A stretch of 64,000 bases of DNA from Amphiscolops sp. MND2022 (lineage: Eukaryota). Position 1 is the stretch's first letter. Each line of letters begins with the position of its first letter. Of the stretch, positions 2,559-58,569 are shown piece after piece. The translations under genes and the position numbers were made by a program. The stretch covers positions 16,678,001 through 16,742,000 of the forward strand of contig OZ076417.1 in NCBI GenBank assembly GCA_964187785.1, in the 5' to 3' direction. Below the pieces are notes generated by a model that saw only the letters and a list, made by a program, of their open reading frames with translations, did no database searches and was not told where the DNA came from.

Positions 2559-2946
2559 TGTTACGAATGCTAACGGGGGAATTTACGTTCCCGAAACGTA
2601 CAGTTTTAGTAGGAGTTAGCGTTACACTGGTAGGAGTTTCTATTATTTCGTCACTGTTACTAGGTCTGTTTTCCAAACTTGAGGACCTTATTGCTAATAT
2701 GAGTTCTCTTTGTGATTGTTCTAGAAGGGTTTTTACTTCTTCAGTTATTTCCTTTCTCAGAGAAGTTTTTAGGTTTTCAAGAGATTGGTCTACCTGAGGA
2801 GTTAGTCCGTTAGTCGAAGTGCTAGGTTCTGAACTTACGTCTTCTCCTACGACGACACTGCTGACCCTCAAAAGATTCTCCTGCTGGTTGTCTTCGGTTT
2901 CTTCTACGCTCACTCCTGCTTTCCTTTTCTGGCTTCTTGTTGACAT
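2559..2946 (-). pseudogene. Copy of the gag N-terminus (129 codons) carried in the 3' LTR, reading out into flanking DNA (ORF track 2443-2946)
   Basis: MSTRSQKRKAG...SPVSIRN is identical to the start of 14284-15723, then diverges at the LTR boundary. Confidence 0.92.
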
Positions 2947-3873
2947 CTTGACTTTGAGATTGTAGTTTCAGAGAATTTATTTCAGAACTTGAAATTTAAC
3001 AGAACGTCATAAACAAGTGAGAGCAATATCCAAGATTTAAAAAACTCAAAGCCACTCCAGTCTATATATACCTTCCCCTATGTCACGTGACCACGCTAGC
3101 GTCACAAAGCTGTCGAAAAAATACCCACTACATCCGGTAAAATCACAATTATATCACGTCCGGCGTTCCTGACTCGAGCTTATTTTCAATGAAATCATAC
3201 TACTTGTGAACAAGGTTTGAACATAATTTCCGAATAAGGTGAGGTAGAATCTCCAACAAAGGAATGTCTCAGATGCAAATCACGACAGACCGGAAATGGA
3301 AGCGTTCCTAAAGTCATTTTTATCGAAACAACCCAACTTTGACTTCGTAAAGGCGGGAAAAAATCTCGATAAGTAGGAAGTGGTCACAAAATTTTCGCGG
3401 GAAAATAGAAACAAAAAATCGAGACGAATACGAGTCAAGAGACGCGGGAAATGACTCACACATAAGTGTGATAAATTTGGGGAAAGTACAAATATTCTGA
3501 GATTTATGGTTTTCCTCAAATACTACATTTTAGAGAAACATGAAATGAATTTTCATTTACAATAAGTCATTAAATGAGAAATCAAACAACAATATGTATA
3601 TATATATATATATGCACACATGAATGTCACGTTAGGACCCTAGTATAATGAACGTTAATTAATCGTTAATATCTGTTAACCAACATTATATGTAAACCGC
3701 ATTCACTGATTACTATTTTATAGCAGTTCCAACAGATCAATCATATTTATTCATCAACAAATATTGGATGTGGCATGGTTTTCCGTAATTTGAAACACTT
3801 GGGAAGCTCTCTTATTTCACAATGCCCTAAGGAAGTATCTTTCATTAATTGATCTTGTTATTCATATTAAGCA

Positions 3874-4225
3874 TGACGTAAGGTCGTCGTATGCGTGAGC
3901 CTAAAATTCGATTGTAATGTGACGTAAACTTGACGTAGACTTGAATTTTCTTTTAGTCAAAACGTGGCGTGGTAATTACGCTGGTTTTTACTCTAGTATA
4001 ATCTTAACAACTAGTTCAATATTGACAATAGCATTGTTTGGTCACAAGCATTGTGTGACGTAGCTTTGACGTAGACTCTTTCCTTTCATTCCGATTAGCC
4101 GTGACGTTTTATTGACGTAATTCATTCTTTCATGCGAGCGGTGCTAAATATTAATCTAGCGTAAACAAACGCTAGCGTGGTTATTGCGTTAAACTAATTT
4201 CTTAGCTGACTATTATTGACGTTAG
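3874..4225. promoter_or_regulatory. Cluster of TGACGT (CRE/ATF half-site) motifs in the element 1 LTR (also ~16640-16990); TATA-like TATATA on minus at ~3062-3069
   Basis: At least 8 TGACGT motifs in ~350 bp, including a duplicated module tgtgacgta-x-ttgacgtagac. The TATA-like element lies ~120 bp upstream of the gag ATG. Function is inferred. Confidence 0.5.
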
Positions 4226-4499
4226 ACATGCGGCAACGCGAGCGGTGTGACTGCACTTTACTTGGAGTGTGCACATAGTAATTGTTTTGGGGTAAACTGG
4301 TACGCATAAGTTTTATTTGTGACGCTTATAATTTCGTTTACAATAGCAGTTTGACAGCATGTTGGTTTTAGTTTTTCCTTGAATCGTTAATTTAAGATTA
4401 TGTTTAAGAGATATTCCCAAGTTGCTTCATATTATCGTTTTAGTTCTTTTAATTTTCGTTTAGTTTTCGTTTAGTTTGTTCAGTTTAGTTTTGAGTTGA

Positions 4500-5213
4500 T
4501 CAATTCCAACAGTACTTAGCTTTCATCAGGCATCCGTGTCCTCTTCCGAATTGTATTCGTCGACAAGAACAAGCCAGTCCGGGAGCGGACTGTGACAGGG
4601 GCACTGTCATGGGTCTGACGTACCTTGATTGGGTGGCGCAGGAAGGAGAGCTGCTTTTCCAGACCTGTGGGGCAAATCTGTTTGTTATTATCTCTTTGGA
4701 TTGTTCCGGGTCGATTCGTCTTGGGTAAGTTAAGTCGTTCAATGAGTTGTTTTCTTTCAAAACCACCCGACGTAATGGTCCCGGAGGAGTGATAAAGAGT
4801 TCTGCTGGTTCTGAATTTTCCTTGTTTTTTTCTAGTAAGTCCTGAGTGTCTAGCACGCTCTCATCTTCTTCATAGTAATCTGAAGACGACGGTTCCTGCC
4901 CTTGAACTATAAATCCTGATTGGCTTGACGGGCTGGCCGGGTTAGATGGAAGGAAATCTTTGTTGGATAATAACGAAATGAGGCTGGTCTCCTCACAGTC
5001 AAGTTTCATCCTTTTGCAGTTTTCTTGAACTATTTCCATTGATGAGTCCAATTCAGAGCCTTCGCTGACTGTTACGTCTAATGAAGAGATTGAAGGGTTG
5101 TATAGCTCTCTTCTTCTCGTTGTATTCACTTTCAGTGGTTGAGAGGATTCGTCTTTTGTTTCTTTCTCAGATTTGCTTGGTGAGACTAGGTCGATCAGTT
5201 CGACGACTTCCAT
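4500..5213 (-). CDS. Orphan 237-aa ORF of element 1, sense to gag-pol, Ser/Glu-rich, running ~97 bp into the 3' LTR
   Basis: Intact ATG-initiated ORF, low complexity and likely disordered, no recognisable domain. Confidence 0.55.
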   Translation of the reverse strand: MEVVELIDLVSPSKSEKETKDESSQPLKVNTTRRRELYNPSISSLDVTVSEGSELDSSMEIVQENCKRMKLDCEETSLISLLSNKDFLPSNPASPSSQSGFIVQGQEPSSSDYYEEDESVLDTQDLLEKNKENSEPAELFITPPGPLRRVVLKENNSLNDLTYPRRIDPEQSKEIITNRFAPQVWKSSSPSCATQSRYVRPMTVPLSQSAPGLACSCRRIQFGRGHGCLMKAKYCWN

Positions 5214-5434
5214 GCTTGAGGATTGTTTCAGTACTGCTAACTGTTTTTTAAATTCCGCTTAATAGGAATGATTTCCTTATCAATTTTCTTGATTTCCTTG
5301 ATTTATAAATTTTCTTTCATTTTGATTGGCTGTTCAGATTTCAAAGCAGATGTTAATCTTTCATCGCGTATTGGTTTAACATCCTTTTGACGAAAACATG
5401 ACGTAGATGCTTCTTTTTTAGATTTGTTGCTTTG
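5214..5434. promoter_or_regulatory. Putative internal bidirectional promoter
   Basis: Lies between head-to-head ATGs (5213 minus, 5435 plus). Palindromic ATTTATAAAT at 5301-5310 gives TATAAA on both strands. ATTGG (CCAAT) at 5325 and 5370, TGACGT at 5399. Confidence 0.45.
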
Positions 5435-8400
5435 ATGACTGAAAAACAATCTGCCTCATTTGTGCCTACGTCACAAGGTTTAGCTAGTGGAGAAGAGACG
5501 CAGTATGGTTTTTCAGAAGGCGATATAATAGTTAGCGAAATTGAGGAGCCTGCTGTTTCTGTATGTCCTGGTTAGTAAAACTTGAAGTCCATCTAGCCCA
5601 ATAACATCGTATTTTCGTCGATTGATCAGATCGCTAATCATACGTGTGGACTAGGTAAATAGCGCTTTCTTACTTCTTTCTTTCCAGGCCCTACTGTGGT
5701 CTCAGACGCTACCCAGCTTTCTCCCTTTGGCACTCCCTTAGGAACTACCTTGTCAAAGACTGTGCAAAAAGAACCTCCTCGGATTCGCGAGGAAATATCC
5801 CACCCTGGAGATTCTGACTTTCGTCACGAAACTGATAAAGAGACAGGTACTAGAGGCCAGGAGAAGGGCGTGACCACCAATGAGGATAGCGAGGAAGATA
5901 CTAGTCAGGACATACTTAGTTGCAAGCCTCAGACTTCAAAAGGAAAATGCAAACGCGGTTAGTATTTTAGTAATATATATGTGGTGTAGCTTACCTCTGC
6001 CATCGAAGTGTGTTCGGAATCGTTGGGTTTGTTTTTTTCCTTTTAGGTTTGTCCGAGTTTTTGTCGTCAAGTTCGGACGAAGAGAGTGTTGGTGATGACG
6101 TTCCGAACAGCCTTGATAAGCCTTTACTTTCGTCGATTGGAATTAGGACGCCTTCGCCTCTGGTGCGGCGGACGTCAAGGTCAACGTCTGCATCTGAGGA
6201 AGTTCTTCGAAAACGTTTTGATAGTTTATTGGGGTACTGTGTACTTTCTTGAATAAGAGGGCATTTCTTTCATGTCGTCTTTGTAGTGCCTGAAGATAGT
6301 GATTTCCTTGGTGGTACCCCTGTGAAGATGACGTCTGCGCAAGTGGTGAGTCTCGGGCGGCACATAGCGTCGGAAGTAGAGTCGTCTGCGGTGGATCCCA
6401 TTATTTCTAGTTAGTGTTTTCTTGAGTTTCTGTTTGAGGTTCACTTGGTTTTATTTTCTTTGGTATGACAGTATGTGTATCGAGGGTTGTTCTGTTATAG
6501 GTTTTGCTGAGTTTGCTAACAAGATTGGCGATTCTCTGGAGAATTTGGGAGTAAGCCCTAGAAAGAAGAAGAAGTACAGTTCTCGCAATCATCTTCGCAA
6601 GGACATGGTTGCCGGAGATGAGATTTTGAGCGAGTTTGTGTCTGGGTCAAAGAATGGGTTGACTACCTATTTCTTCTGCACTATGTGTGAACGCGACGTG
6701 TCGATGATAAGTCGTGGAGCGAGTGAGCTGGTTCGACATTTTACTTCAGAACGTCACTGGGAACGCGACGTGACGTATCGCGTCCATAAAGGGATGCCAG
6801 TGTTCAACCAGTTGCGCCAGCTGAAAACCTTGACTGACGAGGAGCTGAGTCAGTATCGCAGTCGACCTCTCAAAGAGAAAGCTGTGGGGTACCTTTTCCC
6901 CGAGGATAGACTTCCCAAACACAGTGAGATCCGTTCTCGAGTGCCGTTGTTGACGATGGTTAGCTGTTTGACGGAGGTCTTGCGCGGTGGTGGTAGTTAC
7001 ACCATGCTTCGTCGTTTGTGGGGCTTCTTTTGCGCCTCACTAGCTGAGAGTGATCCCTTGTACCGCGTGACGTGGAGTAAGCCAGAGACTCTGGTTAGTA
7101 TTGGAATTTGATTTTGTTTTCTTTGGCACAAGAGCAATTTAGTTATTTGTGTTTTTTTTGTAGTTTGGGTTTTTTTGTAGGCGCTGATTTGTGATGCTCT
7201 GTACCCGCGTGTGTTACGTTTTGTCTTCGGAGCAGTTAATCGTTTCAAAAGTTACAGTCTTGAGTTTAAAGAGCGGAGTGAGGGACTCTTTTGTTACGTT
7301 CGTACTTGGGATGGGGTGCGAATGAAGCGAGTATGTGTCCTGGTGGAGGCTCCTGATGTTCGATTGCCTCACTCTGAATTGCTGTGTTTGAGTCGTGTGA
7401 AGAGCAGTGTCAGCGGATCTCCATACCCTGTTGCGCTTGTTGGTGGGTCTTCGTCAGTTGTAAATTGTTTGAACGCAGTCCATGACGATGGTATGACCTT
7501 TGTGCCTTATCGCGCTTTCACTCACAGTGTTTTCTTAAAGTGTATACAGCAGGCACACCAAGATGTATTCGGTATGCTTGATATTGTTACCATTATTGAT
7601 TACTTGATGGTCCGTTTACGTACTGCTTTGTATGAGGAGTGGATTGATGGACATGTTACGTTGAAGCGTTGTGTTCGAGCTGGACAGGTGTCATTTGAAG
7701 ATCTGCGAGGAGTTATCGATGACATACGTTCACTGTGGCAACCCATTCAGCAGTTCGTTCGCTATACTGGACCTGCCCATCTCAAGGAAAGGCGGGATGA
7801 TGTAAGTAATCTCGTTGACGTACTTGTAACGTTTAGAGAGTGGCGGGGGTATTGTTTGGACGAATATATATTTCACTGATAGTGTCGTTTTGTTTTTTAG
7901 ACGCGGGGTACTGATTGGCTGATTTTTGCTGACAAGCTGATCCCCTTAAGACTCGGGCTTTTGCAGCTAGTTCTTGAGTCTTGTAAGTATGTTTCTGAGA
8001 CTGCTTGATTGTTTTTGTCTGATTGATTTGATGTTTCGTTTGGCTGTTCTATACTCGTTGATGGATCTTCTTTGGTGTTATTTTGGTATTACGGGAGATG
8101 TTGTTTTAGTCCGCGTGAGTTTCAAGAAGATGGCACAGCGTCGTGATGACTACGGGTTCCACTGCTACAGTGAGCTGTGTCACTTTGTGTATTGTTTGTT
8201 AAGCAAGACTCGGGCTGTTGGCTGCTTGCCTAGTATCCATCAATGGGATGCTTATATGAGTGTTGAGCCTGTGAAGAAAATGGTAGCTATTCCTGATGAT
8301 CTGTTCTTGGTAAACCATCCCTTTGGAGAGGAACTGTCGCAGGCCAAAATGAGTGGTGCCAGAGAGTTTCGTCAAGACTGCCGCAAATTTATGGATCAGC

Positions 8401-9392
8401 TTGTGGAGAAGATTCATAAGACAGTGTATTGTTCGTCGCCGGTCTCTCAAGGGCTTTATGCGTTTTGTCCAGAGTTGCTGTTTGAGGGGGATGACGTCAT
8501 TGTTTTCGACCTTTTTGCGAAGCTAGTTACTGGACTTGCCCGATGTGGTCTGCTGAGTGTTGACGAGGTTGCGACGAGCAAGGCTGAATTTTTGTCATAT
8601 GTTTTAGAAGCTCGACGACATCATTCAGAGAGTGGAGTTTCTGTTGGAGACATTAAAGATGTACGTGTGTATTTGCTGCGTCAGTATTCGTTTCAGTCAC
8701 GTCATTGTTTGACTAGAGTATTCCAGCTGTGTTGTTTGTTCATTGAATTACCTGATGAAGTTCCCGCTCCTATAGAGTTTGATTTCGGCGAGTGTTCAGT
8801 TCGTCCTGGAGTGTTGACCTCGTGTTTGCGTAGTGTCCAGTCTTTCGTCTCTTGTGCAGGTTACGAGCAGTCGACGTTTTTCACTGAAACTACTATGGAC
8901 CATGTGCGACGTTCCCTTGACGCAGCTGAGACATTTATGTCTAATGTGTCATTCAATCCTTGGGGTGACATTTGTGTTGGAGACAAGTCTGCTTTATTTG
9001 TGTCCTTGAATTCGGCTTATAGTACGTATCTGCAGGGGCGAGTGGAATCTGCTGAGTCGCATTATAAGACAGCTAATGTGACAAATCGTCAAGTTTTTGT
9101 TGCTACTCCAGTTGTTGAGGATACTACATTGCGTGCTTCGTCTGTGGAAAAGCCTGTGAGTACTGCCAGTTCGTCTAAAGTGAAGGATGATGGAGGAGCT
9201 CTGGTGCAGTCTATATTTGGTGGTAGTGCAAGTGGGTCCCAGCGAGGGGGTTCATTGAGTCGTCGCAGTAGTCGAGGTCAATCACGGAAGGTGGTATCAA
9301 AGTCACAAAAGTCGCAGAAGAGGTCTACTAAGTCGACTAAGGTGAAGAATGTTGGAATGAATAAACTTCTCGTTCGTGTTTGTGTTAATTGA
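5435..9392 (+). CDS. Antisense multi-exon gene inside element 1: zinc-finger, hAT-transposase-like protein (~1100 aa), probably catalytically inactive; one in-frame TAA at 5528-5530
   Basis: Exons 5435-5570, 5688-5957, 6047-~6230 (donor uncertain), 6287-6409, 6501-7093, 7181-7801, 7901-7982, 8110-9392. Introns have GTTAGT/GTAAGT donors, T-rich tracts and AG acceptors, and phases match at every checked junction. Zinc finger CTMC-x16-H-x5-H. Confidence 0.82.
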
Positions 9393-9476
9393 TGTTAGTT
9401 ATTTATACTCTGGTTTTTGGTATGGAATCAATTAAACATAGTCAAGTTGGTTCAGCTTGGACTCTTGAATTATATT

Positions 9477-12400
9477 TTATTCCTGAGTAGTAATTATGGC
9501 GTCTAGTCGTCTGAAGTCGGGTTTTGTGTTAGGTGTAGGGTTCGGTCGTAAGTTATGATTCGCTATTTTTCTGGGGTTGTATCCGACGTGAGTAGGGGAA
9601 TATGTAGGGGAGGCGGGGGGGCTTTCGATTGGAGGGGGATTTGTTATAAAGGGGTTATCTTCGACGTCCATGTTTACGTTAGTGAAATCTGGTTCAACTG
9701 CGGGCTCATCGTCATTTATGTCGTGAACTTCGTGTGGGCTGTTGTGTGTGAAGTTATGATTATAGTTTTGTTGGTTTTCTATTGGGACGGAGATGTCTGG
9801 TTCTTGTAAGTGGGGTTCCCAAGCTTGAGCGTACCATTCATTATGATGTATTATAACTTCTGGATCGGGTAAATAGTCCGTTGGTTTGACCGTGACGTCT
9901 GGTAGACGTTGAGCTGCTTTATAAATTCGTAGGCGTATTCTGTGAAGCGTTTGAGTGTATCGCGTGCCTAAGCGGCGTATAGTGTAGTTGTTGTTTGATA
10001 GGATTTTGATGACTATGAATGGTCCAGTCCAAATGCATTCATTAAACGCGAATTTCGTCGATTGGTTATCTGCTTTGGGGTTCAATACGTAGCAGTAGTC
10101 GTTGACTTTGAGGGGAGTTGCGTTAGCTTTTCTGTCGTAATAGCGCTTGTATTTGATGTAGGATACCATGAGATTTTCTTTGATTGTTGTTTTGATTTCC
10201 TCCGTTTGTTTCAGTAGTTGTTCTGCTAAGGCGGTGTTTTGTTGTCGTTGCCATTTTGGTTTCAGTCCCAGTTTGAGATCAAGTACGTTGTATGGGACGC
10301 GGGCATGGAACACTGTTGATGGTTCGCACCCAAGACTCTCGTGGTAGGTGGTGTTGTAGTTCATAACAGCTATCTGTACATAATTGTGCCACATTGATTT
10401 TCTTTCTCCTGTGGATATTTTTAGTGAAGTTTTAAGTGATGCATGTGTTCTTTCAAGGATGCCGATTGTTTGGGCGTGTTTTGTTGTGGCATGATGTATT
10501 TCGATGTCTAATACTTTAGTAATCTCCTGTATTACTTCTGCTCGGAATTAAGATCCTTTGTCAGAAATAATGCGTGTTGGCAGGTAGGCGTGTCTGGTCA
10601 TGACGTCTAAGATACATCGTCCTACAGTACGTGCTGACATGTTTTGTACTGGGTATGCAAAAAGGTAGCGTGAGAAAACGTCTATCATCGTCACTATGTG
10701 TTGGTAACCTGCAGAGCTTGGTAGGTTTGGTAATATGTCTATTTCGAGTATGTCTTCGGGTCCAAGTGAGAATTCATTAGGGTTGATCATTTTGGGTCTT
10801 ATTAGTCGCGTGTTGATTCTTTTGTGTTTGATGCAGTCTTGGCAGTTGGTGACCCATTGCTTTATGTGATTGGCGATGTCGGGGTAATAGTATTTCGCTC
10901 GACATTGTTGAATCATTTTGGTTATTCCTGGGTGTTTTCCTGAAGTTCCGTGCATAGTTTTAAGCAGCTCTGGTATTATGTGGGTTGGGAGGATGACTTG
11001 GTTATGGGTGACTTGACCACATTCACCGTAGTACTTGCGTACAAGTATTCCGTCTTTAAGGGTTATTCGGTTTTCGTGTTTGAGGAGTTTTTGTGCTTTT
11101 GGATCTGTCTGTAGTAAGTGTGCGTCATATTCTTCCTGTGATAGTTTTGCCTTTATGGTTTTCAGGACTGTATCTGCATCTTGTTCATTTCTGATGCGGG
11201 GGTTTTCAGTTATTGCTCCTAGGGAGTAAGAAAGTTTGTTTATTGGGATCATGGTGGCTTCTTGTATTGTTGCTGTGATTTCGTTTTGTTTGTCTGTGTG
11301 GGCTCGTTGTTTGGCTGACATTTTTCGTTGTAAGATTTCTTCTTCTGTTTCCAATCGTTCATCTGGTAGGAAAAATTGTTGTTCGTCATCAGCTACGTCA
11401 GTTGATTGCATGTTGATTTGTATGGGGGTCGTACGTATATCTTCCCTTATTGTGAGCTCTATTTTTTCTTTGGGTGTTATTTCGAGTCGGGAGAGGAAGT
11501 CTGCTGCGGTATCAAGTGTCCCTGCTACATGCATGATTCTGAAGTTAAATCGTAAGACGTAGTCACATGCGTTCCAAAGGGTCGGTGGTATTGCTTTGGT
11601 TTGGAAAAATCTTGTGACTGAGCGGTTGTCAGTCATAACGAGGGTTGGTAGCGTGGCCTCCCATAGTATATGGCTGTATTCAAGGAACGCGTGATATATT
11701 GCTAAGAATTCTTTGCAATATATGGACATTTTGAGTTGGGCCGGAGAGAATACCTTTGAGCCAAATGCTACTGGGGCGAATGTTTTTCTTTTGGAGGTTA
11801 GTTTTTTGTCATCTTTCTCTTCAATCATAAGTGCGTATCCTGATGTTCGGAAGCTGGCATCTGCCATGATGACGTATTGCCGTCCCTTGATCGGTTGTTT
11901 GAGGGCAAGGCCGCAGGCTTCTGTTAGGGCTGTATTGATTGCTTTGTAGTCTTCTAGTATGTCTTCCGTGATGGTTATTTTGTTGTCTATTTTGAGGAGT
12001 TCGTAAAATCTTCGGAGCTTTTCGGAGAGTCTGTGTATGTAGGTTCTGTAATAGTTTACAAATCCAATGTATCGCTGAACTTGCTTTTTGGATTTTGGGA
12101 ATCTGACGTTGGGTAGGAATTTTTTGATTTTGTGGTCTTGTGGTGCCACTCCTTGTGATGTGATCGTTCTTCCCAAAAACTCTACTTTGGTGACTCCAAA
12201 ATGGCATTTCTCAATAGTCAATTTCAGGCCTGCTTGTCTTATGCAGTCGAAAACAGCTTTGATGTTTCGTATAAGCTGCGTCACGGTATTGGCGGCAATG
12301 CCTATGTCGTCGACGTATTGAGCACATTGGTGAGCTTTTATTACTTTATCAAGGTATTCTCTCATAAAGCTGGAGAATTCTGAGAGGGCTCTGCTCAGTC

Positions 12401-14326
12401 CTTGGGCGAGTCGTTTATAGGCAAAGGTTCTGCTGGCAAAATTGAATGCTAGTAACTCCACTGAGCGTTGATCTGCCATTTGAAGGCAGTGATATGCTTG
12501 TGAGCAATCAAGTTTGCAGAAAAGTTCTTTCCCTGCAAGATGTTGCGCTGCGTCAGAGAGTGTGCTGATGGGGTGGTTGTTGTTGATATAGTCGTCAGAT
12601 ATCAAGGCATTTATTTTTCGTAAGTCTACGAGTAGTCTGAGTTTGCCGTTTGGTTTGCGCTGGGCGAATATTGGGCTTGCGTATTTGGAGAACGGTAAGG
12701 TTGTAATCATGCCATATCTATGCATCAAGGCAAGTTCGACTGTTAGGTCTTCTTTGAGGTTAATCGGTACGGGCAGGCTTTGTGTATACACTGGTGCTTC
12801 GGTTTTGGGTGTGAGTTTGACCTTGAAGTTGTTGTTGATGCCTATGTCTAGGCGATGTCTCGCAAAGATGTCGTTGTATTCGACGATCACATCTTCTAGT
12901 TGTTTCCGTTCTTCGCCTTGTATTAGTGATTGGTCCTTGTGAACTGGAACATGTTCAGGAACTTTTCTCGGGATTGTTGATCTGTTGTGGGATTAAGTTT
13001 TTCCTTTTCTTCTAGTTCCCTTATTTCTTTGATGACTCGTTGTTGTATTGGGGTGTGTTCATTTTCGTTTCCTGGATTTTCTGGGGTGGGGAACCAGAAA
13101 CTGTCTTCGTGATGATCATCTGTTTTCATTAGTTCTTGGACGTACGCCACTGCATCGTCATGGTCTTCGAAGATTTTGAGGGCAGCGACGTCAATTGGTC
13201 GTATGTGTTTTGTGTCTTCTGGTGTGAGTATTTGCATTTCGGCTATCTTCGTATTGGTAGATATTGTGTACGGACTTTCAGTGGTGTTGATGGCTCTTAT
13301 TTTGACTCTTTTGGAGTTTGTGGACGTTATTGCAGGGGCAACTATAATCTGGGCATTTTCATCAAATTGGGGTAGCGGTTGGATGGTGCCAGTCATTGTG
13401 TGTTCTGCGTTTGTTATGACGATTGCATTGATGGTGCTGGCTTGTTGTGATGGTATCGTTTGTGTTTCATTGGTTCTTACTTGCATGGTTTGTGGAGTGA
13501 ATTTTTTCATTTCATCCTTCATGGCTAGTGTCATTTCGATGTGGGGGAATGTAATTGTGCCATTTGCTGTGTCCAGTACTGCTTGGTGGTTCCTCATGAA
13601 GTTGAGTCCGACTAATGGGAAGGACGTTCTTGAGAGGACGACAAACGTGTCGGTAAAAGTGTATGAGCCGATATTGAATTGCATGTCGGCCGTTGCTATG
13701 GGTTGTTCTATTGTAGCATTTGCACATTCGATTTTGAATGGAGGTTGTGGATATTCTTTGATTATGCAGTTTTCGGTATTGTTGCGGATCATGGTGTAGT
13801 CAGACCATGAGATGGCGTTTATATATGCGCCAGAATCGACAAGTCCATCGAGGGTGATTTCTCCGAACTCTAGTGGCAGATAGAGCATGCGTCTTCGTTT
13901 TTTGAGGTTGATGGTAGACATGAGTGGTAGGTAGTGATCTTCTCCTTGGGTGGTTATGAATTCCTTGATGGAGTTGAGTGATGTTGGGAAGTTATCATGT
14001 TTTGGTGAGAAGTTGTCTTCGGGGCTGGGTGTGTTTGGTATTTCCCTTTCGGATGGATGAATTGTTGTCGTAGTTGATTCATGATTGCTGTCGTCGTAGT
14101 CGTTGAGTTTTGGTGACTTTGGTTGGGTTTCTTCGTGTTGGTTTCCATTCAGAGGTAAGGGTCGTTTAGTTGTCAAGTGTTCGTTATCATGATCAGGGGT
14201 TCCTGATGGGTGATTTGTGTGTTCATAGTTAGTGGCACTTGAGTGTGTTGATGGGGGGTCTTGGATGTTGAATGCCCTCGCGACTACTGTTTCCCCGAAT
14301 TGTAGTCGCGGCGTATTGAGTTTTTT
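9477..14326 (-). pseudogene. pol: Element 1 pol (PR-RT-RNase H-IN), interrupted by one 1-nt frameshift (~12935) and one premature TAA (10548-10550)
   Basis: PR LVDSGA; RT KLDCSQAYH and YVDDI; RH ADAS/TDN/ADFLSR; IN H-x5-H...C-x2-C, EIDIL, ISDKG, ILERT. ORF-track pieces 12923-14176, 10548-12890 and 9477-10394 join; the last two are in the same frame across SDKGS*F. Confidence 0.96.
14279..14326 (-). promoter_or_regulatory. Programmed -1 ribosomal frameshift signal (gag-pol)
   Basis: Slippery A AAA AAC (14320-14326) is in the gag frame, followed after ~9 nt by a perfect 9-bp stem CGCGACTAC/GTAGTCGCG. The -1 frame is open straight into ...EHLTTKRPL of the protease ORF. Confidence 0.88.
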
Positions 14327-15723
14327 GATTCGTCCGCTTCTGGTGTCGCCTTTATCTTATCTGGTTTTGGGGTTATGCTGGATTGCCTCTTAGGTCTTGG
14401 ATCGTTTGCGGCGTTGGCGCCGTTCCAGCAATCTTCCGTTTTGTGTGGTTTTCCACAGGTGACACATTGTGGTCTGGGAGGACGTGTATTGTTGTTCGAG
14501 CCGTTTTGTTTTCTTGTTTCTTGCCATTTATCTCTTTTGAGTTTTCGGCATTCTGCTTTGTAGTGTCCATATCGGGAGCAGTAGAAGCAAAGTCCTCGTT
14601 TGTTTTCTTTGTTGTGCGGAGTATTTGACGTTGGGGCGACGTTATTGAGGGGTACTAGCGTTATTTCGTCTGGTGTCCCTAGGCCGTTAAGCCGCATTTC
14701 CCTCTCGAGGTGGAGGACTATTTCATTATAGGGTTTGTCTTCCAGGTATGCTCGGTTGAGGATCTTTTGGACATGATCAGGCATCTTAGCGTATATCGCT
14801 TTATCGATAAATTGTTGTGCCTCAGGTCCAAATGCCTCCTTCGCTGTTTTTTGGAGTGAGTCTAGAAATTCGTGTAGCTTTTGTGTTGTTGGATCGAATT
14901 TTAGCGTGTCCCATTCGCAGCGGGCTTTTGCGACTGAGAGATAGTCTCCAAATCGTCGTTTGAAGGTCGTCATGATATCTTCTAAATTGTTTTTCTTGGT
15001 GTCGTCAAGGCTGCGGAAAGCTTGTAAAGCTTCGCCCCTTAAGAGCGAATGAAAATAATTGATTCTTTGAATTTCTGTTAAGTGTGGGTGCATTCTTATG
15101 TTGTTTCTGAAGAGATCTTCGAACAGTTCGAATTTTTCATTTTTGCCATCGAATGTTGGTAGGGACGTTGTGAGGGCCTTGGGCATTGGGGGCGTTGTAT
15201 TGGATTCAGTTTGTTTTGTTGAGGGTGGAGCAGCTTCAGGTAGGTTGGTTCGTTCTGTGAGTGGTGACTGGCTTTGGGTACGAGTTTTGGATTTTTTCTT
15301 AGGATTAATGGGGTCGGGGAGGACTCCTGTCACCATGTTACGAATGCTAACGGGGGAATTCACGTTCCCGAAACGTACAGTTTTAGTAGGAGTTAGCGTT
15401 ACACTGGTAGGAGTTTCTATTATTTCGTCACTGTTACTAGGTCTGTTTTCCAAACTTGAGGACCTTATTGCTAATATGAGTTCTCTTTGTGATTGTTCTA
15501 GAAGGGTTTTTACTTCTTCAGTTATTTCCTTTCTCAGAGAAGTTTTTAGGTTTTCAAGAGATTGGTCTACCTGAGGAGTTAGTCCGTTAGTCGAAGTGCT
15601 AGGTTCTGAACTTACGTCTTCTCCTACGACGACACTGCTGACCCTCAAAAGATTCTCCTGCTGGTTGTCTTCGGTTTCTTCTACGCTCACTCCTGCTTTC
15701 CTTTTCTGGCTTCTTGTTGACAT
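14284..15723 (-). CDS. gag: Element 1 Gag, 479 aa, intact
   Basis: Capsid-like PTFDGKNEKFELFEDLF...YFHSLLRGEA. Zinc knuckles CFYCSRYGHYKAEC and CVTCGKPHKTEDC. Confidence 0.95.
   Translation of the reverse strand: MSTRSQKRKAGVSVEETEDNQQENLLRVSSVVVGEDVSSEPSTSTNGLTPQVDQSLENLKTSLRKEITEEVKTLLEQSQRELILAIRSSSLENRPSNSDEIIETPTSVTLTPTKTVRFGNVNSPVSIRNMVTGVLPDPINPKKKSKTRTQSQSPLTERTNLPEAAPPSTKQTESNTTPPMPKALTTSLPTFDGKNEKFELFEDLFRNNIRMHPHLTEIQRINYFHSLLRGEALQAFRSLDDTKKNNLEDIMTTFKRRFGDYLSVAKARCEWDTLKFDPTTQKLHEFLDSLQKTAKEAFGPEAQQFIDKAIYAKMPDHVQKILNRAYLEDKPYNEIVLHLEREMRLNGLGTPDEITLVPLNNVAPTSNTPHNKENKRGLCFYCSRYGHYKAECRKLKRDKWQETRKQNGSNNNTRPPRPQCVTCGKPHKTEDCWNGANAANDPRPKRQSSITPKPDKIKATPEADESKNSIRRDYNSGKQ
15323..15335 (-). 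other. Primer-binding site TGGTGACAGGAGT (tRNA-Leu-like), embedded in gag coding sequence
   Basis: Directly abuts the 5' LTR end (...TAACA|TGG). One mismatch to the usual animal tRNA-Leu(CAG) PBS TGGTGTCAGGAGT as I recall it; tRNA identity is inferred. Confidence 0.8.
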
Positions 15724-17346
15724 CTTGACTTTGAGATTGTAGTTTCAGAGAATTTATTTCAGAACTTGAAATTTAACAGAACGTCATAAACAAGTGAGAG
15801 CAATATCCAAGATTAAAAAAACTCAAAGCCACTCCAGTCTATATATACCTTCCCCTATTTCACGTGACCACGCTAGCGTCACAAAGCTGTCGAAAAAATA
15901 CCCACTACATCCGGTAAAATCACAATTATATCACGTCCGGCGTTCCTGACTCGAGCTTATTTTCAAAGAAATCATACTACTTGTGAACAAGGTATGAACA
16001 TAATTTCCGAATAAGGTGAGGTAGAATCTCCAACAAAGGAATGTCTCAGATGCAAATCACGACAGACCGGAAATGGAAGCGTTCCTAAAGTCATTTTTAT
16101 CGAAACAACCCAACTTTGACTTCGTAAAGGCGGGAAAAAATCTCGATAAGTAGGAAGTGGTCACAAAATTTTCGCGGGAAAATAGAAACAAAAAATCGAG
16201 ACGAATACGAGTCAAGAGACGCGGGAAATGACTCACACATGTGTGATAATTTTGGGGAAAGTACAAATATTCTGAGATTTATGGTTTTCCTCAAATACTA
16301 CATTTTAGAGAAACATGAAATGAATTTTCATTTACAATAAGTCATTAAATGAGAAATCAAACAACAATATGTATATATATGCACACATGAATGTCACGTT
16401 AGGACCCTAGTATAATGAACGTTAATTAATCGTTAATATCTGTTAACCAACATTATATGTAAACCGCATTCACTGATTACTATTTTATAGCAGCTCCAAC
16501 AGATCAATTATAATTAATCATCAACAAATATTGGATGTGGCATGGTTTTCCGTAATTTGAAACACTTGGGAAGCTCTCTTATTTCACAATACCCTAAGGA
16601 AGTATCTTTCATTAATTGATCTTGTTATTCATATTAAGCATGACGTAAGGTCGTCGTATGCGTGAGCCTAAAATTCGATTGTAATGTGACGTAAACTTGA
16701 CGTAGACTTGAATTTTCTTTTAGTCAAAACGTGGCGTGGTAATTACGCTGGTTTATACTCTAGTATAATCTTAACAACTAGTTCAATATTGACAATAGCA
16801 TTGTTTGGTCACAAGCATTGTGTGACGTAGCTTTGACGTAGACTCTTTCCTTTCATTCCGATTAGCCGTGACGTATTATTGACGTAATTCATTTTTTCAT
16901 GCGAGCGGTGCTAAATATTAATTAGCGTAAACAAACGCTAGCGCGGTTATTGCGTTAAACTAATTTCTTAGCTGACTAATTTTGACGTTAGACATGCGGC
17001 TGCACTTTACTTGGAGTGTGCACATAGTAATTGTTTTGGGGTAAACTGGTACGCATAAGTTTTATTTGTGACGCTTATAATTTCGTTTACAATAGCAGTT
17101 TGACAGCATGTTGGTTTTAATTTTTCCTTGAATCGTTAATTTAGGATTATGTTTAAGAGATATTCCCAAGTTGCTTCATATTATCGTTTTAGTTCTTTTA
17201 GTTTTCGTTTAGTTTTCGTTTAGTTTGTTCAGTTTAGTTTTGAGTTGATCAATTCCAACAGTACTTAGCTTTCATCAGGCATCCGTGTCCTCTTCCGAAT
17301 TGTATTCGTCGACAAGAACAAGCCAGTCCGGGAGCGGACTGTGACA
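15336..17346 (-). repeat. Element 1 5' LTR (2011 bp)
   Basis: Direct repeat of 2559-4597, followed by TSD GAGGT. Confidence 0.97.
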
Positions 17347-17830: not shown

Positions 17831-18382
17831 CTATGTGTAAGAGCCACGTCCCGTGGTGTCTCTCAAATCACCTACGGACCGTGAGTCTTTTTTCGTTATT
17901 TTAGTTTTCAACCCGGATGAATTTTCCCTATTTTCCTGACTACTTGAGGACATACTGGCCTCAGTGTCCCTATTTCCTGAAGATGACATTGAACTCACAA
18001 TGTTTTGGATTTCTGGGATCACCCTTTCTGATATAGCAGTGCTAATGGCTCTGTTTATCTGGTTATGGACCATGGACATCATGGAATCCATTTCTTGAGA
18101 CAATCTGAGGTTGAATTCATTTGTAAAGGTTTCAAAGGACTGTCTAACTTCATTGTGCCCCATCGGCTCATTTTCTTGTATAAAGCTATAATTGTTCCTT
18201 TGGTACTCATTTCCCTCGTAGTCCGCCTGGACAGAGGACTGTTCAATTGCATCTGCTAATTCTTTCTCAATAGGATTTTCACTCCCATTACCTAACATTA
18301 CGTCCAAGTTATCTATATCGGACATGATGTCCATTTCTCTAGACTTTCTTGCCTTAGCTTTCTGTCTTCTTGTGGAAGGCAT
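17831..18382 (-). pseudogene. gag N-terminal segment (MPSTRRQKAKARKSR...), 183 aa, inside the putative LTR
   Basis: Basic N-terminus and position analogous to element 1. The ORF stops 5 nt beyond the ...TTACA terminus. Confidence 0.65.
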
Positions 18383-19345
18383 TAATGATTGTACTAGAGG
18401 TAATATTTAAATTATTCTAGTAATCGGTTATTAACAACGAAACGGTTAATAATTTGTATCTGAGTATTATCGAAAGGTGAACTGATAATATTATCGCTTG
18501 TCAAATTGTGTCCCCGAGGACAACTAGTCCTGGGTATTTATAGTTAGGGCGGGGGTGATGATCTAATTTCAGGGTGTCATGCATCTATTTTTAGAACATA
18601 ATAGCTAAAAATAGCACCGTGATGTCATCATCGCACTAAATATATACTTCAAAGGGCTAGCGGTGGTTGAATATTTATACGGCCTCCATGGCTACAATGA
18701 CAATGACAGCCAAGAATTACATATATTTACATGTAAAGGCAACAATTCATGTATCATGTTCTATAACGTATCTTTTCTAGCCATATTAGCTAGAATGTAT
18801 CTAAAATAGTAAGCATCGAGATTTCAGTTTCTGTACTTTCAAAGTACAGGATTGATCAAGTATCCACGCTGTCTTATTATAGCAACTAATAGAGCAGCTT
18901 TCAACTATTTAAAATAACAGCATTGTCGGCTTGTGTCAAAATGGACACGCTGTCCTTTATTTATTTCCAAGCCGTAAGAATGAAAGCCAAGTACGGCGCA
19001 AGTACTAATACCGCCATATTGGTTTAATAGCAACTGTACATGTACATAACTAAATACTGCTCTCGGATTGGTTGATTTCAAATTGGATGCTTTGTTCAAG
19101 GCGACAGGCAAGAAAACATTTGAACTCGTTTCCTTTGCCTGTACGCCTTGGTGTCCAATTTCAAATTTACCGTACATTAATATACATATGAATAGCAACA
19201 GTATCTAACGTTTTACATTGAGTATAAAATCAACTAATATTAAACAGTCGAAATAGTACTTTCTGAACAAGTTTTAATTTATTGGGAGGGTATTCGGTAG
19301 GGCTCTTTGGTAGCTGTGGTTTATTGAATACAGATTCCCATCACA
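17836..19345 (-). mobile_element. Probable 3' LTR of a second, decayed family related to element 1
   Basis: Candidate TGTGAT...TTACA termini. Contains a basic gag-like N-terminus ORF that ends at the boundary, with TATAAA ~150 bp upstream of its ATG. Followed by a homolog of the antisense gene. No partner LTR in the window, so boundaries are inferred by analogy. Confidence 0.55.
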
Positions 19346-19871: not shown

Positions 19872-20880
19872 TGTCGGCATTCACAGTGTCGAAGAACGCG
19901 GTCCCATTGTTCGCGGAATCGAATCCGCCAAGATATGGTCGGTGACCACCTCGTTTTCCAGTTGTTCGTGAGTGGATCGAGCACTGGTTTTGATGATTTT
20001 TTTTTCATCATCCAAGTCTCGTTGGGCTGGAGAGCTCAGGCGTCACTTCTTTGACGATTGTCATGGGTAAGCAAACGTGAAGTATCGTGTCCACCAAGGC
20101 TTGTCTGACTTCAATAAATTGATGCGCGCAATTGAGCTGTCAGAGACTCAGAACAAAATCGTCTCTCGCCCTTTCAAAGACAGAGATTTTCAGTTTTGGT
20201 TGGTTTGTTGGGTCGTTTCGTGTTGGCGTGACTACAGGCTTCGTCGCAAGCTGCAGGAAAGTTTCCGGGGACCCTTGGGCTGGACAAGCCTATGCTTTCT
20301 CTCAATGGAACAGATCCGAGTCACTATCCGAGTCAGATGTTGATCAGATAATTTGTTTTGTTGCTTGTTGTGGCATTTCTCATTTGTTTTCCAGTCGTTC
20401 GTGCGTCTCGCGCGTATGCGTTAATGTTGAGTCTTTGGGTCAGTCGTAATGATGGGCGCCTGTTCATCTACTGCCAAGCTCATCAAGAGCTTTTTGGCAT
20501 GATAGTGTGAACAACAATGGAAGACTTTTTAATGTTTAGTCCGTATGCTGCTCTGCAGGTGCTGTGGATGGAAGATTTCCCGAGTCTGCATCGCGTTGTT
20601 GTCTCGGTCACGTTATTTTCACTGATTTGCGGGCTGCCAAGCGGAAGTTGCTTTCTGTATGGTAGAGCGTCCGAGAATTCGACCGCTACACTGCTGGCCC
20701 TCGGCATGTCAATTCTGTGTTTGATTTAGTTGTCTTCATTTCCCTCACATTGTTTGATGCTTTTTGCGTGTTTCTTCTTTTGTTTTTTTTTGTTCTTTGA
20801 GGTTGGGTGGGTTGTAGTGTTTTTGTCAACGGTTGTCATTTTGGTGTTTTCTGTTTTTCAAGATGCCTGAGACAGGCTGG
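19872..20880 (+). pseudogene. Degenerate second copy of the antisense hAT-like gene, 5' part (interrupted by element 2)
   Basis: SRNRIRQDMVGDHLVFQLFVSGSSTG vs SRNHLRKDMVAGDEILSEFVSGSKNG; ELRRHF..CH vs ELVRHF..RH; YRVHQGLSDFNKL vs YRVHKGMPVFNQL; QAHQELFGM vs QAHQDVFGM. Contains stops and frameshifts. Confidence 0.85.
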
Positions 20881-44528: not shown

Positions 44529-44863
44529 TGATATACTTGTGAATTATATTCGATCATTTACCTATAATCTATATTCGATCATTCCCCTCCCTCCTCTTCG
44601 CTTGATGTCCAGATTAGATCTATGTTTTCTGAATATTAATGTAATCAAGCCATAGCTAATTTGTATTCAATACTATACTCAATATTGTCAAGCATCAATC
44701 TGATTTATATCCTGACACAACGAAATTAACTCTTCACCATCAAGTTGTCTTCCCTTGAGACCTTACACTGCAGCTCTGTTAGCGTCTCTTTAAAGTACTG
44801 CCCCTTTTGAAATAATTTATCTAAATTCTGATAGCTTCCAATCACCCAAAACAAAAAAGTACT
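44529..44863 (+). repeat. Element 3 5' LTR (~335 bp)
   Basis: tgatat...cgatcatttacctataat...caaaacaaaaaagtact aligns with 61185-61513. Confidence 0.88.
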
Positions 44864-44924
44864 TTAACCACAATCCTTTTTCTTTCCTTCCTTTTTCCTC
44901 TTAATACAATATTTTCTTCTTTCC

Positions 44925-45253
44925 GTACTAATCACAAAAGTGATTCGATATCTTTCATATCGGTACGCAATTCTTCTTTTCTTCTGTACTAATCACAAAC
45001 AGAAGTGATTCGACATAACGTCGGTAACCATTCAAAGTGGTTCGACCTCGTAGTCGGTACAAACAATCCTTCTGTACTAATCACCAAAAAATCATTCAGC
45101 CTTGAAGCTGGTACAACCATTATTCTGTACTAATCACCATTGAATTGATTCAGCTACATGCTGGTACATCAACTCTTTCGTACTAATCAAGTTGATTGGA
45201 CTTTTGTTGGTACTCTCTAGTGCTAACCTCTTGATTCGACCTTTTGTCGGTAC
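44925..45253 (+). repeat. Array of ~7 structured repeat modules in the element 3 5' leader
   Basis: Consensus GTAC-TAATCAC-loop-GTGATT-CGAC-loop-GTCG-GTAC. Units at 44925, 44986, ~45026 (partial), 45074, 45127, 45180 and 45220. Confidence 0.9.
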
Positions 45254-46073
45254 ACGTTTTTGTCTCCTTTTTTTCTATAAATTTGTACTCCCAGTTTAAA
45301 ATGTATAATCTCAATTATGCATCTCAAGACTCCGTATGTACTCTAATGATTATATCGTTTTTGTGTGGCCTACTTGCAATTGTTTTTCTTGTCGTCGACA
45401 AATCAAGATTGATTTCATTCCCCGATAACTTTTCGCTCTTTAATCAATGTTTCTGACCGAAAACCTTGCTACAAATATTTTTTTTGTCTCATACATATTT
45501 GCTCTGCTTGTTTTTCGTATGCTCCTTGTTGAAAAAATATTCATCACACTGTTCACCTAAACTTAATCTTTTTAATTCCCTCTCCTTTTCCCATAACCTC
45601 TTTTTCTTTGCAACCTCCCACATTCCCCTACCACATTTCCAATTCCTTTTCGTTTCTCTAACTCTAATTTCTTTAAACTTTTCCCCCTCCACCACTATTA
45701 CTCATACTCACCACCTCATCGTCTTTAACCCTTTCTACTATATTTTTAACCTTCTCACTTCACAATCCTCCATACAATTTTGCATTTGCTCCGTTTATCC
45801 TACCTCCTTCTACCAAACTGTTCTTAAATTTCGTTTAATCTATTTTTTTAAACTCAAACCCTCTCCTTGCAATTTTTCAACTCCAGCCCATTTCCTTCAT
45901 TCTTTCCTTCACCACTCTTTTCCTCCACCGTAAACTCCTCCCCGATTATACTGATTTTGGCCATAAACTCTATCTTTTTTTAACAATCCAACGCCTCCTC
46001 CAGAACCACCTATTGATCCTGATATTCTCTTCAATCGTATTTCATTAAGTTTTCATCCTCACCGACAATCATA

Positions 46074-48990
46074 ATGGCTACTACGCCTCCTCTTCTTATT
46101 ACTCTCCCATTTGCAGTTGATCCCACCCGCTCTCGTCTTTCTCGCGAAAACACCCACATTTCAACAACATTCCTTAAAAATCTTTTCTATAGATCCACTG
46201 TTCCTCTTTCTTTTGAAACATTCCCTGAAGATATTTATACTATCCCTCTTATTCGTGGGTATTCATAATATCCCTCTTATCTCCCACTTTTATTACATTG
46301 ACACTCATTCTCTAACTTCTACTCCTGATGACCCTTCTTTCTCTCTACCTTTCACCTCTCCTTTCCACGCTACTAATATCTTTCGTAACAACATTTACCC
46401 GTCCAATATCTACATTCCGATCGCTCATGTCTTCACAACTTTTCTCAAAAACTTCTCGGAGAAGAATATTCTCCTACTTCAACATTTTTTCACTCCTCCA
46501 CCCCTCAGCTATACAAACACTCCTTACAAAGGAAACTTATTTTGAACTCCCCAGTATTGAACATCTTCGTACTGTTGAAAAAAATCTCCATCATTGGCTT
46601 GTTACAGATATTCTTCAAATGCACCACATTCAATATCAATTCTTTCAAAATTTAACCTTAAATACTCACACTAAAGAACAAATTCGAATATACACCTTGT
46701 TTCTTAGACTTTTTTTAGATATAACTACCAACTCTTTTGGGACTCTAAGTTCCAATCAAGACGCTTGTACTAATTTTCTTTCTCAAATTTCTAAAGATGA
46801 ACTCCTTCCTTTTGTTGCAGCTCCGCTAATCAACACCCTTCCTTCTATGACCTCCGTGATTTCCCAGTCACTCATTTTGAATTCCTCACTTATGATACTC
46901 AAAGTATCAACAAACGGCTTGAACTTCCTTCTCCTGTCAGACCATATAATACATATCTCCCTCAAACGTTTGCTTCAAATACCACTTCTGAGGTTTCACT
47001 CCAAACTATCTCTCCTGCTTCTAGTGTGTTAGTAAACAACACACACTCTATTGGTTATCCTCCTCCAAATCTTGACCCACCTCCTTCACCTCCTATGAAT
47101 TCTATTCCTCTTTCTAATAATCTTATCACTACTCAGACCACCAATTCTCATTCTCCACTCCAGTATAATTCTCCTTCAAACACTCCACCACCAACGGTTA
47201 ACAATACAATCATTATTCAACCAACCACTTCTCAAATACACCGATCCTTTCCTCCAATTCCTATTTCCTTCCCCTCTGTAATAACTACTCAACCTCAATC
47301 TCACTCTTCTAATACATCTCTTCCGCCAACGCTTTCCTCTAATCAAAACCACCCGTTTCCCTTGCCTACTTCTCAGAATCCTCCTCAAACATCTAATTTA
47401 CCTCCTGCCTCCACATCCTATGACCCTTATGCATCACTCAATCCCAGCTTTCATCATTCACTTAAGTCTTCCTTTCAACCTCCTAACCTTCCTCCTAACC
47501 CTTTTCCCACCGCCTTACACCCCCACTAATCCTTTTCATACTCTCACTTCTCAATCTCCTCCTCTAGGTTTACAAATGGCTCCTTGTGCCGCTCTCTCCA
47601 ATCCTATTACACTTTTTGATAGCTTGGACCATACGTATCCTCCTGGAAAGTTCTTAGCTCATCTTAGCGCACGTGTAATATTTAAACTTGGAACTTTACC
47701 CCTTGACATCCAATCGTATTCAACCTGGCACTCCAGACGTATGTCTCTCCTTTATTGTTCCCTCACAGGAACTGCCTCTAATTAGTCTGACCGCCTTCCT
47801 CAAGGTTATAAAAACGATTGGTCTTCTTTCCTCTAAATTTTCAGAAAACAATTCTCTTGAAAATGTTTGACACTATGCTTTAAAAGTTGAAACTCTTGTC
47901 AATCAAGTATGGGACAATGAATAGCCATCCACCATAAACATTAAATGTAAAGAAATTTTTACTCGTGTTTTTCCAAAAAGATTTTGCCAATAAATGCCAA
48001 GTTAAACATATTTCAAGTTCCCCTCGAACCTTCAATTCCCTTTCACTCTCTTGTCAAAATGGTTGATTCCGATGATATTACACTCGAAAAGATGAAACCA
48101 CAACAACTTTCTTTCAAAATAAACACTCTTTCCGATACCTTTAACCAAAATACCTCTATTTCCGATAAACTTTCTGAAACTTTACAAATACAAGCTGTAG
48201 ACCCTAATGATACATCTAAACCCCACTTTGAAAAATATTGCTCCTTTTGTTAAAAAAAAACAATCATTCTTTCTCAACATGTTATCGAAGAATCAATATG
48301 TTGAAAGAATCTGAACCTCAATCCAAATCGCTCACGCCATCCTTCAACAACATTTTAAAACACCCTTCAATAAATATGACAATCAAACTCTTCGTTACCG
48401 CAGTCGTAGCAATAGTAATCTCACGAGAACCTGGCTATAAATCTTGTTCTCATCTTCGTTCAAATTCTCGCCCAAGATAAAATCATAACCACTCTTCTCA
48501 AAACCACTCTCCATATTATGGTCGTAGTCGATCTAGATATGTCCAACATTACAAAAACTCCTCACGTTCATAATACTCTTCTCGCCCTTATAATAATTCA
48601 ACCTCATCTCGTATTCCATATAAACCTTACCCTCGTTCTCGCGAACGCTCCTTCGGCTATAACAATTCCTCTATTAGACGCTATAAATCACCATACCGCT
48701 CTCCTTCTAAACCACGTTCCGATCGCTATTGAAGTTGATCTCACTCTTACTCAAGGAGTTATTCAAATTCCCAATATAAACAAACTATCAAACTTACTCA
48801 ACAACCAGTTCGCAATAATCATCACTCTTGCTCAACAGAACCTAAATTTGAAACAAATATGTATCATCCAAATACCTCCTCATGTTAAAGATGAAATAAT
48901 CAAGCTAACGCTCTCACTCGTTCTACTTGGTTCGTCAACCTGTACAATTGTGAACAACCTGAAGAAACTTCTTCACCTTCAAAACTAAAA
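46074..48990 (+). pseudogene. gag: Element 3 gag-like region, fragmented
   Basis: HIQYQFFQNLTLN; FDSLDHTYPPGKFLAHLSARV; LTGTASN; LEPSIPFHSLVK; KYCSFC...NHSFSTC; RS-rich tail. All parallel element 2. Confidence 0.8.
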
Positions 48991-57700: not shown

Positions 57701-58569
57701 CTTTTGGTTGAGGTTTTTTTGGAACTGTAACCAAAACAATGATGACTGCTTTGATTAAGTCACCTGATTCTAACTCCGCCTCTGATGATTCTGAGCCTCC
57801 GTCCCTTTCATACCATAAAACTAAAACCAAAAATACAAAAGCTCATAAATACAAACCTAACAACAAATCTAATATTTTAAAATCTTGAGAATAAAGATTC
57901 CATGCAAACCTCTCCAAAAGTCATCTCCTAAAAAATCCTCCTTCCTTAATTTTTCATCACCAAATCCTCTTATTATCACTCCTCCTTTACAATTTGTTGA
58001 CAATACTTCACCTCCTCCTCCTAAGTTTAATTAATATACTAATCCACCTAATAATTTTTCACCTCGACACACCCAATTAACATCTTTGTCTTCTCCTTCT
58101 TATCACATAACTCCACACCTCCTGAAGATACCAATATTGACAACTCCTCTAATAATTCCCCCGTCCACAATGTACGGCAATCAACTGAAGTTTTTCCTCC
58201 TATTCCACCACTTATGAAATTTAATGACATTCCAATAATCTCTGTGGCTTTTTTCTGAATCATTGTAACCCAAAGAATTTCCTCCTTTCTCTTCTTTCAC
58301 CCATCAATAATTCTCCTTTTCTTCTCATCGCAGTCGCTAATTCTGAATATCTACTTTTGTTTCTACAAAGCATTTTTCACTCACCCATCAAAAATTTTTC
58401 TCCAATCACTTTGTCTTGCTGCATCTGTAATCTCTTCATTGCATACTTTCTACATTTCACGCCACTTTCCAAAAACAACGCACATTTTTACTCTGTAAGA
58501 AATCTTTGCCTCTTAGACATCTCTATTTCGCATACTCACATTCATATTTTAATATCATTTTTCAGAATG

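Follow-up and report, generated by a model that had tools for sequence, protein, structure and literature searches.

A hAT-derived, probably catalytically dead transposase gene carried antisense by a Ty3/Gypsy retrotransposon lineage in Amphiscolops

We analysed a stretch of 64,000 nucleotides from Amphiscolops sp. MND2022 (contig OZ076417.1), referred to as the window. A Ty3/Gypsy element lies on the minus strand and spans window positions 2559-17346, with two long terminal repeats (LTRs) of about 2 kb each and a flanking 5-bp target duplication, GAGGT. Between its pol gene and its 3' LTR sits a plus-strand gene (5435-9392), antisense to the element, which we call the cargo gene. The results give good support to the view that the cargo is a transposase domesticated by a retrotransposon lineage, derived from the hAT superfamily and probably dead as an enzyme. 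An earlier note on this DNA had placed such a protein at 6501..9000; a gene is present there, but the predicted gene runs further on both sides.

The cargo gene was modelled with eight GT-AG exons, which are predicted from the sequence only to encode a stop-free protein of 1094 or 1099 amino acids (aa). Exons 1-4 (5435..6409) encode a low-complexity Ser/acidic N-terminal extension without counterpart in the transposase alignment, and exons 1-2 were recognisable in loci L021-L023. The four exons that follow are named A to D (Table 1). The peptides quoted in the earlier note were all found in the window on the plus strand, in order and across three exons: the finger and SKPETL in 6501-7093; ALICDALYPRVL, YSLEFKE, YVRTWD and LRGVIDD... 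in 7181-7801; and KAEFLSY and LTRVFQL... in 8110-9392.

Related genes fall into three clades, for which the names A, B and C were coined in this analysis. Across 20 clade A loci, with positions extrapolated from the ends of tblastn matches, the donor after exon A was GT in 19 of 20, the next acceptor was AG in 18 of 20 and the exon D acceptor was AG in 18 of 19. A clade about 23% identical in protein showed introns at two of the same positions, with donor GT in 8/8 and exon D acceptor AG in 7/7. In the third clade (B), a single open frame of about 880 aa encodes the same core and runs collinear with exons A, B and D, so the cargo reading frame is confirmed independently of the splice calls. 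Around the cargo, no inverted repeats of at least 40 nt were found in the window and none of at least 60 nt in 16 longer regions, short terminal inverted repeats (TIRs) not being searched for. The mobile unit flanking the cargo is the LTR element with its 5-bp duplication.

Standard searches did not place the cargo. Pfam showed no significant hAT match, with one of 15 members giving DBD_Tnp_Hermes at E 0.17, and PDB sequence searches likewise showed no significant hAT match. The Ac-type hATs of this genome failed to reveal the homology, and an Ac-type profile reached only E 0.14. These misses in the standard libraries indicate that the hAT signal needs the right hAT subgroup. A motif scan revealed another hAT group in this genome, one member of which retrieved 80 metagenome loci. 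The cargo profile A5 (85 rows) matched 49 of 151 frames of at least 120 aa from these loci at E<=0.05, with a best E of 1.1e-12, while the best E in the reversed-frame control was 0.15.

The cargo family profile was then compared by hhalign with a profile of intact hAT transposases (30 distinct frames of at least 430 aa, shorter frames left out). The comparison gave 98.3% and E 1.5e-14 over 500 collinear columns, while reversed-profile controls gave E 0.2, in agreement with the hAT origin that had been read by eye. The finger (E 2.3e-7), the 'RTK..' helix together with strands 1-3 (E 3.6e-6) and the helical insertion region of exon D (E 1.4e-13, the best-matching block to true transposases) were each significant alone; the strand 4-to-RW block and the C-terminal block were not. 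Motif by motif, the finger, the 'RTK..' helix, strand 1, strand 2 and KAEFLSY paired as the earlier note had expected, with mean posteriors of 0.95-1.0, but its later matches were weaker: the helix after RW reached 0.69, and the supposed dimerisation region, which was not significant alone, only 0.38. Across the hATC dimerisation region (PF05699) the posterior was 0.3-0.4, the block alone gave E 0.08 and Pfam gave no match; the donor-group proteins themselves barely match PF05699. The cargo finger is of C2H2 type and aligns with the donor-group finger, and Pfam zf-BED was not matched. The Hermes BED finger is described as CCHC (PMC10368747).

Atlas neighbours, all scoring below 0.9 and taken as leads only, named zf-BED for the N-terminal half and FAM200/ZBED5, DUF4371, DUF659, Dimer_Tnp_hAT and ZBED1 for the rest, all of them hAT-derived families. 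A model of the N-terminal half, poor at pLDDT 48, had its strands in the order of an RNase H core, with long helices after them. Foldseek with this model against 350,542 chains returned Hermes in rows 1-5 (E 5.5e-3 to 5e-2), so that the fold check suggested in the earlier note points to Hermes on a poor half-protein model only. A VIA comparison of the same model spoke neither for nor against the Hermes likeness.

The metagenome relatives are true hATs, in which D, D, CxxH, RW and E are nearly invariant. Two of the 28 relative loci examined showed a CAGGGTT.. TIR and an exact 6-bp target duplication, and a duplication of this length is given as a mark of hAT6, which is placed inside a Blackjack-containing lineage (PMC12730594). 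Against Ac-type hATs, the in-genome hAT6-like profile gave 95.9% and the metagenome profile 65%; 'hAT6-like' here denotes the closer of the two hAT groups compared and not a position on a rooted tree. Because the homology is collinear over the transposase body and the reversed controls are negative, the cargo is assigned to the hAT superfamily by descent, and its origin from a hAT transposase appears nearly certain from sequence comparison.

We inspected the catalytic positions on the same alignment. The DDE triad, (C/D)xxH and W are described as common to hAT and MULE enzymes, with the triad needed for cleavage and joining (PMC5499845). The first catalytic Asp, at the end of strand 1, was D in 0 of 51 cargo rows (E in 16, R in 12, Q in 12, K in 5; Lys in the window; posterior 0.95) and was present in 22 of 25 intact relatives. 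At the second Asp, after strand 4, D occurred in 1 or 5 of 49 cargo rows depending on the register, with a weak local alignment (posterior 0.16) and no Asp-rich column in either register. No C..H columns were seen in the cargo rows, and the second Asp/(C/D)xxH position was kept in 28 of 29 relatives. An invariant Trp (49/49 cargo rows) pairs with the W of RW at posterior 0.68, an alternative register without W being possible, and the Arg before it was found in 0 of 49 rows; the Trp of RW is probably kept. The third catalytic position was D or E in 32 of 39 rows, with Glu in the window and 0 of 6 in clade C, in a low-confidence alignment (posterior 0.3), and an acidic residue may survive there. 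There is thus no intact DDE triad, yet some residues of the catalytic region remain. The earlier impression that the DDE residues, CxxH and RW appear replaced holds for the first Asp and for the unrecognisable second Asp and CxxH, but probably goes too far for the Trp of RW and perhaps for the third acid. On these residues, the cargo is very probably without transposase activity and is predicted to be catalytically dead.

The finger ligands (C-x2-C-x16-H-x5-H; C 6677, C 6686, H 6737 and H 6755) are the most invariant residues of the cargo alignment. The first C was present in 54 of 57 rows (the other three are misplaced fragments of exon D), the second C in 47 of 48, and the two His in 45 of 47 and 47 of 47. 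Sequence-specific DNA binding by the cargo through this retained finger is likely.

An exon B search of the 1.07-Gb genome gave 6209 first-look candidates, and all 150 that were scored had E <1e-56. Among 36 loci picked from the cargo side, a count that does not give the share of relatives without cargo, the cargo was antisense and tail to tail with integrase in 35 (19/20 in clade A, 10/10 in clade C and 6/6 in clade B). The sole exception, L032, has a truncated cargo and no pol within the fetched stretch. A quick reverse transcriptase (RT) tree recovered the three cargo-bearing clades (support 99, 99 and 89), apart from two other Gypsy elements of the window, and a single capture by an ancestral Gypsy element is plausible on this tree, the outgroup of which is very small.

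Clade B copies are young, with LTR pairs 99.3-100% identical, and 31 of 37 near-full-length cargo matches in this clade were stop-free. The dN/dS ratio was 0.057-0.112 across exons A, B and D in eight pairs with dS <1.3, and most of the remaining pairs were near or at synonymous saturation. The position behind pol and these ratios bear out the proposal that the cargo is carried and maintained by the retrotransposon. The cargo is not a nested insertion but an accessory gene, old and under selection, of a retrotransposon lineage; we regard selection at the level of the element as almost certain. Searching 1.84 billion proteins with a profile gave 872 matches at E<=0.001; the 10 clusters checked among the 150 listed were all unnamed. 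Since one protein match (P0141) was only about 25-36% identical to its matches in this genome, the cargo family is probably present in other genomes.

For the role of the cargo, we propose a hAT6-like-derived, dead accessory gene of a Ty3/Gypsy lineage that binds DNA and acts on the LTR or non-coding DNA of its own element to keep it transcribed, a reading to which we give an even chance. A hAT element or its gene would have entered an ancestral Gypsy element antisense behind pol. The introns would outlast reverse transcription, as the LTR replication cycle implies, since the genomic RNA carries the opposite strand, and cargo transcription would start from an antisense promoter within or close to the 3' LTR. 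The protein would enter the nucleus through the basic patch before the finger, and the finger would bind short motifs, much as hAT fingers are described as recognising short subterminal repeats (PMC10368747, PMC8097297). The bound protein would then act on the element's own LTR or non-coding DNA and keep the element transcribed. Transposases are reported to activate cognate copies, Spm TnpA to derive from a transposase, and domesticated transposases to lose DDE residues recurrently (bioRxiv 10.64898/2026.08.24.746577). By analogy with such systems, the cargo may be a self-directed putative activator or anti-silencing factor, for which the chances seem slightly less than even.

The cargo varies more than the integrase beside it. 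Among six elements with 94-98% integrase protein identity, exon B was only 59-96% identical. In a recombinant pair (L024 and L040), pol DNA was 98-99% identical and cargo 75-77%, and the LTR end had also diverged, whereas L024 and L029 shared 95-96% in cargo and 89% at the LTR end. From these identities, the cargo and the LTR end move together between pol backbones. The window 3' LTR holds eight TGACGT sites in 350 bp (3874-4217) and the 5' LTR seven (16641-16983), partly as an 11-bp tandem; we take these sites to be CRE-like. In the LTRs of other clades, other words were modestly enriched. The divergence of the cargo fits loosely a VANC-like pattern, VANC proteins and their target repeats being described as diverging between related elements (PMC5735166). 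Co-movement of cargo and LTR end is also expected from linkage alone, the TGACGT cluster and the enriched words are no evidence of binding, and CpG counts were uninformative. More tentatively, the Gypsy lineage might have made the captured hAT transposase into a sequence-specific activator or anti-silencing factor of its own, cargo and LTR being exchanged as matched pairs, and this might be a cause of its expansion to thousands of copies. If so, a class II enzyme would have been the raw material for a TnpA/VANC-like system in a class I element.

Three other roles stay in contention, each of them unlikely, the first two to the same degree. As an integration tether, the cargo protein would bind a genomic motif or chromatin, recruit the integrase complex and steer insertions. 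It has a DNA-binding finger and a large conserved scaffold and always stands beside integrase in the element layout, but it has been exchanged between pol backbones and its divergence far outpaces that of integrase, even if the integrases concerned are 94-98% alike. The target duplications read in the window and in clade B showed no obvious common motif, in a sample too small to judge site choice. As a negative autoregulator, the protein or the antisense transcript would limit element expression, like deltaretrovirus antisense products, and spare host and lineage. The antisense position suits this role, and such roles have been proposed for antisense open reading frames (ORFs) (PMC7264820), but the lineage is very abundant (the 6209 first-look candidates) with many young copies, and selection acts on the protein sequence, not on RNA alone.

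A little less likely again is a protein scaffold without a DNA target, the oligomerisation and helical domains of which would engage silencing or repair proteins of the host, components of the particle or, as a decoy, active hAT transposases. The helical insertion domain is the part best conserved relative to true transposases, hAT6-like elements are present in the same genome, and accessory proteins of transposable elements (TEs) are predicted to make many host contacts (PMC13547354); however, the most invariant residues are the finger ligands, and the hAT6-like copies seen in this genome were few and mostly broken. A residual enzyme, in which an altered active site nicks or processes DNA such as cDNA ends, is improbable: it could draw on the invariant Trp, the frequent acidic third position and the Glu that 16 of 51 rows have at the first position, but the first position never holds Asp and is Lys, Arg or Gln in 29 of 51 rows, the third is poorly aligned and non-acidic in clade C, and the triad is described as required in hAT/MULE enzymes (PMC5499845). 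A neutral passenger, in which the retrotransposon simply copies a hAT insertion nested within it, is hardly credible: nested insertions are common and hAT6-like elements occur in this genome, but dN/dS near 0.1 with saturated synonymous sites contradicts neutrality, the splice sites are conserved, the frames are open in three clades, and the cargo has diverged past Pfam recognition and is yet intact.

A DNA-binding regulator of its own element, the reading we prefer, can be compared with several known systems. The cargo shares with hAT6-like transposases the collinear finger, the 'RTK..' helix, RNase H strands 1-3 and the helical insertion domain, but it lacks the first Asp and the R of RW, its second Asp and CxxH are unrecognisable, and it carries a long N-terminal extension of low complexity and resides within an LTR element. 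Antisense ORFs 3' of pol in other Gypsy elements (Grande gene23, RIRE2, Retand TRP28/PF04195 and Boty) are described with the same place and orientation, presence in most copies and conservation, and have been proposed, as the cargo is here, as nuclear or DNA-binding regulators (PMC7264820, PMC11963269). A review gives these plant and fungal ORFs as of unknown origin and without similarity to other TEs (PMC7264820), whereas the cargo has predicted introns, and its ancestor, a full-length transposase, can be traced. PF04195 was not matched by the cargo in Pfam searches. Antisense accessory ORFs of Gypsy elements were previously without known origin or function (PMC7264820), and the cargo supplies a traceable ancestor for one.

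The sequence-specific activators Spm TnpA and VANDAL VANC are, like the cargo, reported as element-encoded accessory proteins that diverge fast between subfamilies (bioRxiv 10.64898/2026.08.24.746577; PMC5735166), and TnpA is also a reported transposase derivative (bioRxiv 10.64898/2026.08.24.746577). However, both serve DNA transposons, TnpA within its own superfamily, whereas the cargo is a class II enzyme in a class I element and its activator role is putative. The likeness to VANC is an analogy of role only, VANC having been traced to a host MAIN-like protein and not to a transposase (PMC13547354). No VANC or TnpA family was matched by the cargo in Pfam searches, and no direct comparison was made. 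Host-domesticated hAT proteins (the ZBED family and CGGBP; PMC8097297) are described as having kept the hAT finger and lost the catalytic role, as the cargo probably has, but these are fixed host genes, often cut to the DNA-binding part, while the cargo is mobile, multi-copy, full length and selected in a retrotransposon.

In an Arabidopsis atlas, LTR accessory proteins are reported as co-opted from host genes (PMC13547354). That a retrotransposon, and not the host, should have domesticated a transposase is an unusual cross-class origin, and we found no LTR element with a hAT-derived accessory gene in a literature search that left out subscription journals, Repbase and supplements. Genes of this type escape Pfam-based annotation. 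Because the lineage offers copies that are young and intact, a clade without introns and many diverged subfamilies, the function of the cargo is directly testable, and the system can test the proposal that transposases turn into transcription regulators in one step by losing catalysis.

Table 1. Coordinates of the cargo gene and of the Ty3/Gypsy element that carries it, in window positions.
Feature	Position	Strand	Details
Cargo exons 1-4	5435-5570, 5688-5957, 6047-6223 or -6238, 6287-6409	+	GT-AG model
Cargo exon A	6501..7093	+	basic patch PRKKKK, C2H2 finger, helical region to 'RTK..' motif
Cargo exon B	7181..7801	+	RNase H-like strands; Lys 7268-7270 in place of the first catalytic Asp; second-Asp position 7439-7444; invariant Trp 7640-7642
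Cargo exon C	7901..7982	+	27 codons
Cargo exon D	8110..9392	+	helical insertion-domain homolog; degenerate C-terminal region; Glu 8775-8777 close to the third catalytic position; Ser/Lys-rich tail
3' LTR	2559..4597	-	97.6% identity to the other LTR over 2043 nt; on +, GAGGT just before
RT, RNase H, integrase	9480..12992	-	one in-frame stop at 10548-10550
Protease part of pol	12926..14356	-	Asp_protease E 0.004, under cut-off
gag frame	14287..15744	-	begins within 5' LTR; PF03564 E 1e-9; Retrotrans_gag, Ty3_capsid and zf-CCHC below cut-off
5' LTR	15336..17346	-	on +, GAGGT just after; primer-binding site TGG... at inner end

The in-frame stop in the integrase is private to the window copy, the site being open in all 17 loci in which the motif was found (20 examined). 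The gag frame crosses the LTR end and the primer-binding site, so that about 130 gag codons are present in both LTRs, and gag matches likewise overlap the LTR in clade B (L123-L134). A weak dUTPase-like match (PF00692, E 0.04, under the cut-off) lies between protease and RT, within the protease frame. A purine-rich tract beside the 3' LTR (4598-4620) is absent from the window copy and from its close relative L021 and present in clade B. In clade C elements (L094:2213-3175 on the plus strand, and other loci), the stretch from the cargo to the 3' LTR holds an extra frame of 321 aa, read in the gag-pol direction; it has a C-x2-C motif and matched nothing in Pfam.

Further along the window, a gag-start-like frame at 17834-18406 on the minus strand resembles by eye the N-terminus of clade C gag, and a decayed cargo remnant lies at 19890-20725 on the plus strand (E 2e-12 and 2e-8); together they probably belong to a second, truncated element of this lineage. 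Two further long LTR elements of 20 and 17 kb (20881-40885 and 44529-61516) show strong strand GC skew and a distant RT, and neither gave a cargo match at E 1e-3. Elsewhere in the assembly, small contigs (L143-L145), of a composition unlike the chromosomes by eye, hold frames with CxxH-N and RW-like motifs that gave no match to the cargo profile at a useful E. A distinct hAT family (L170-L178) is present in this genome in about 30 near-identical copies, often internally deleted.
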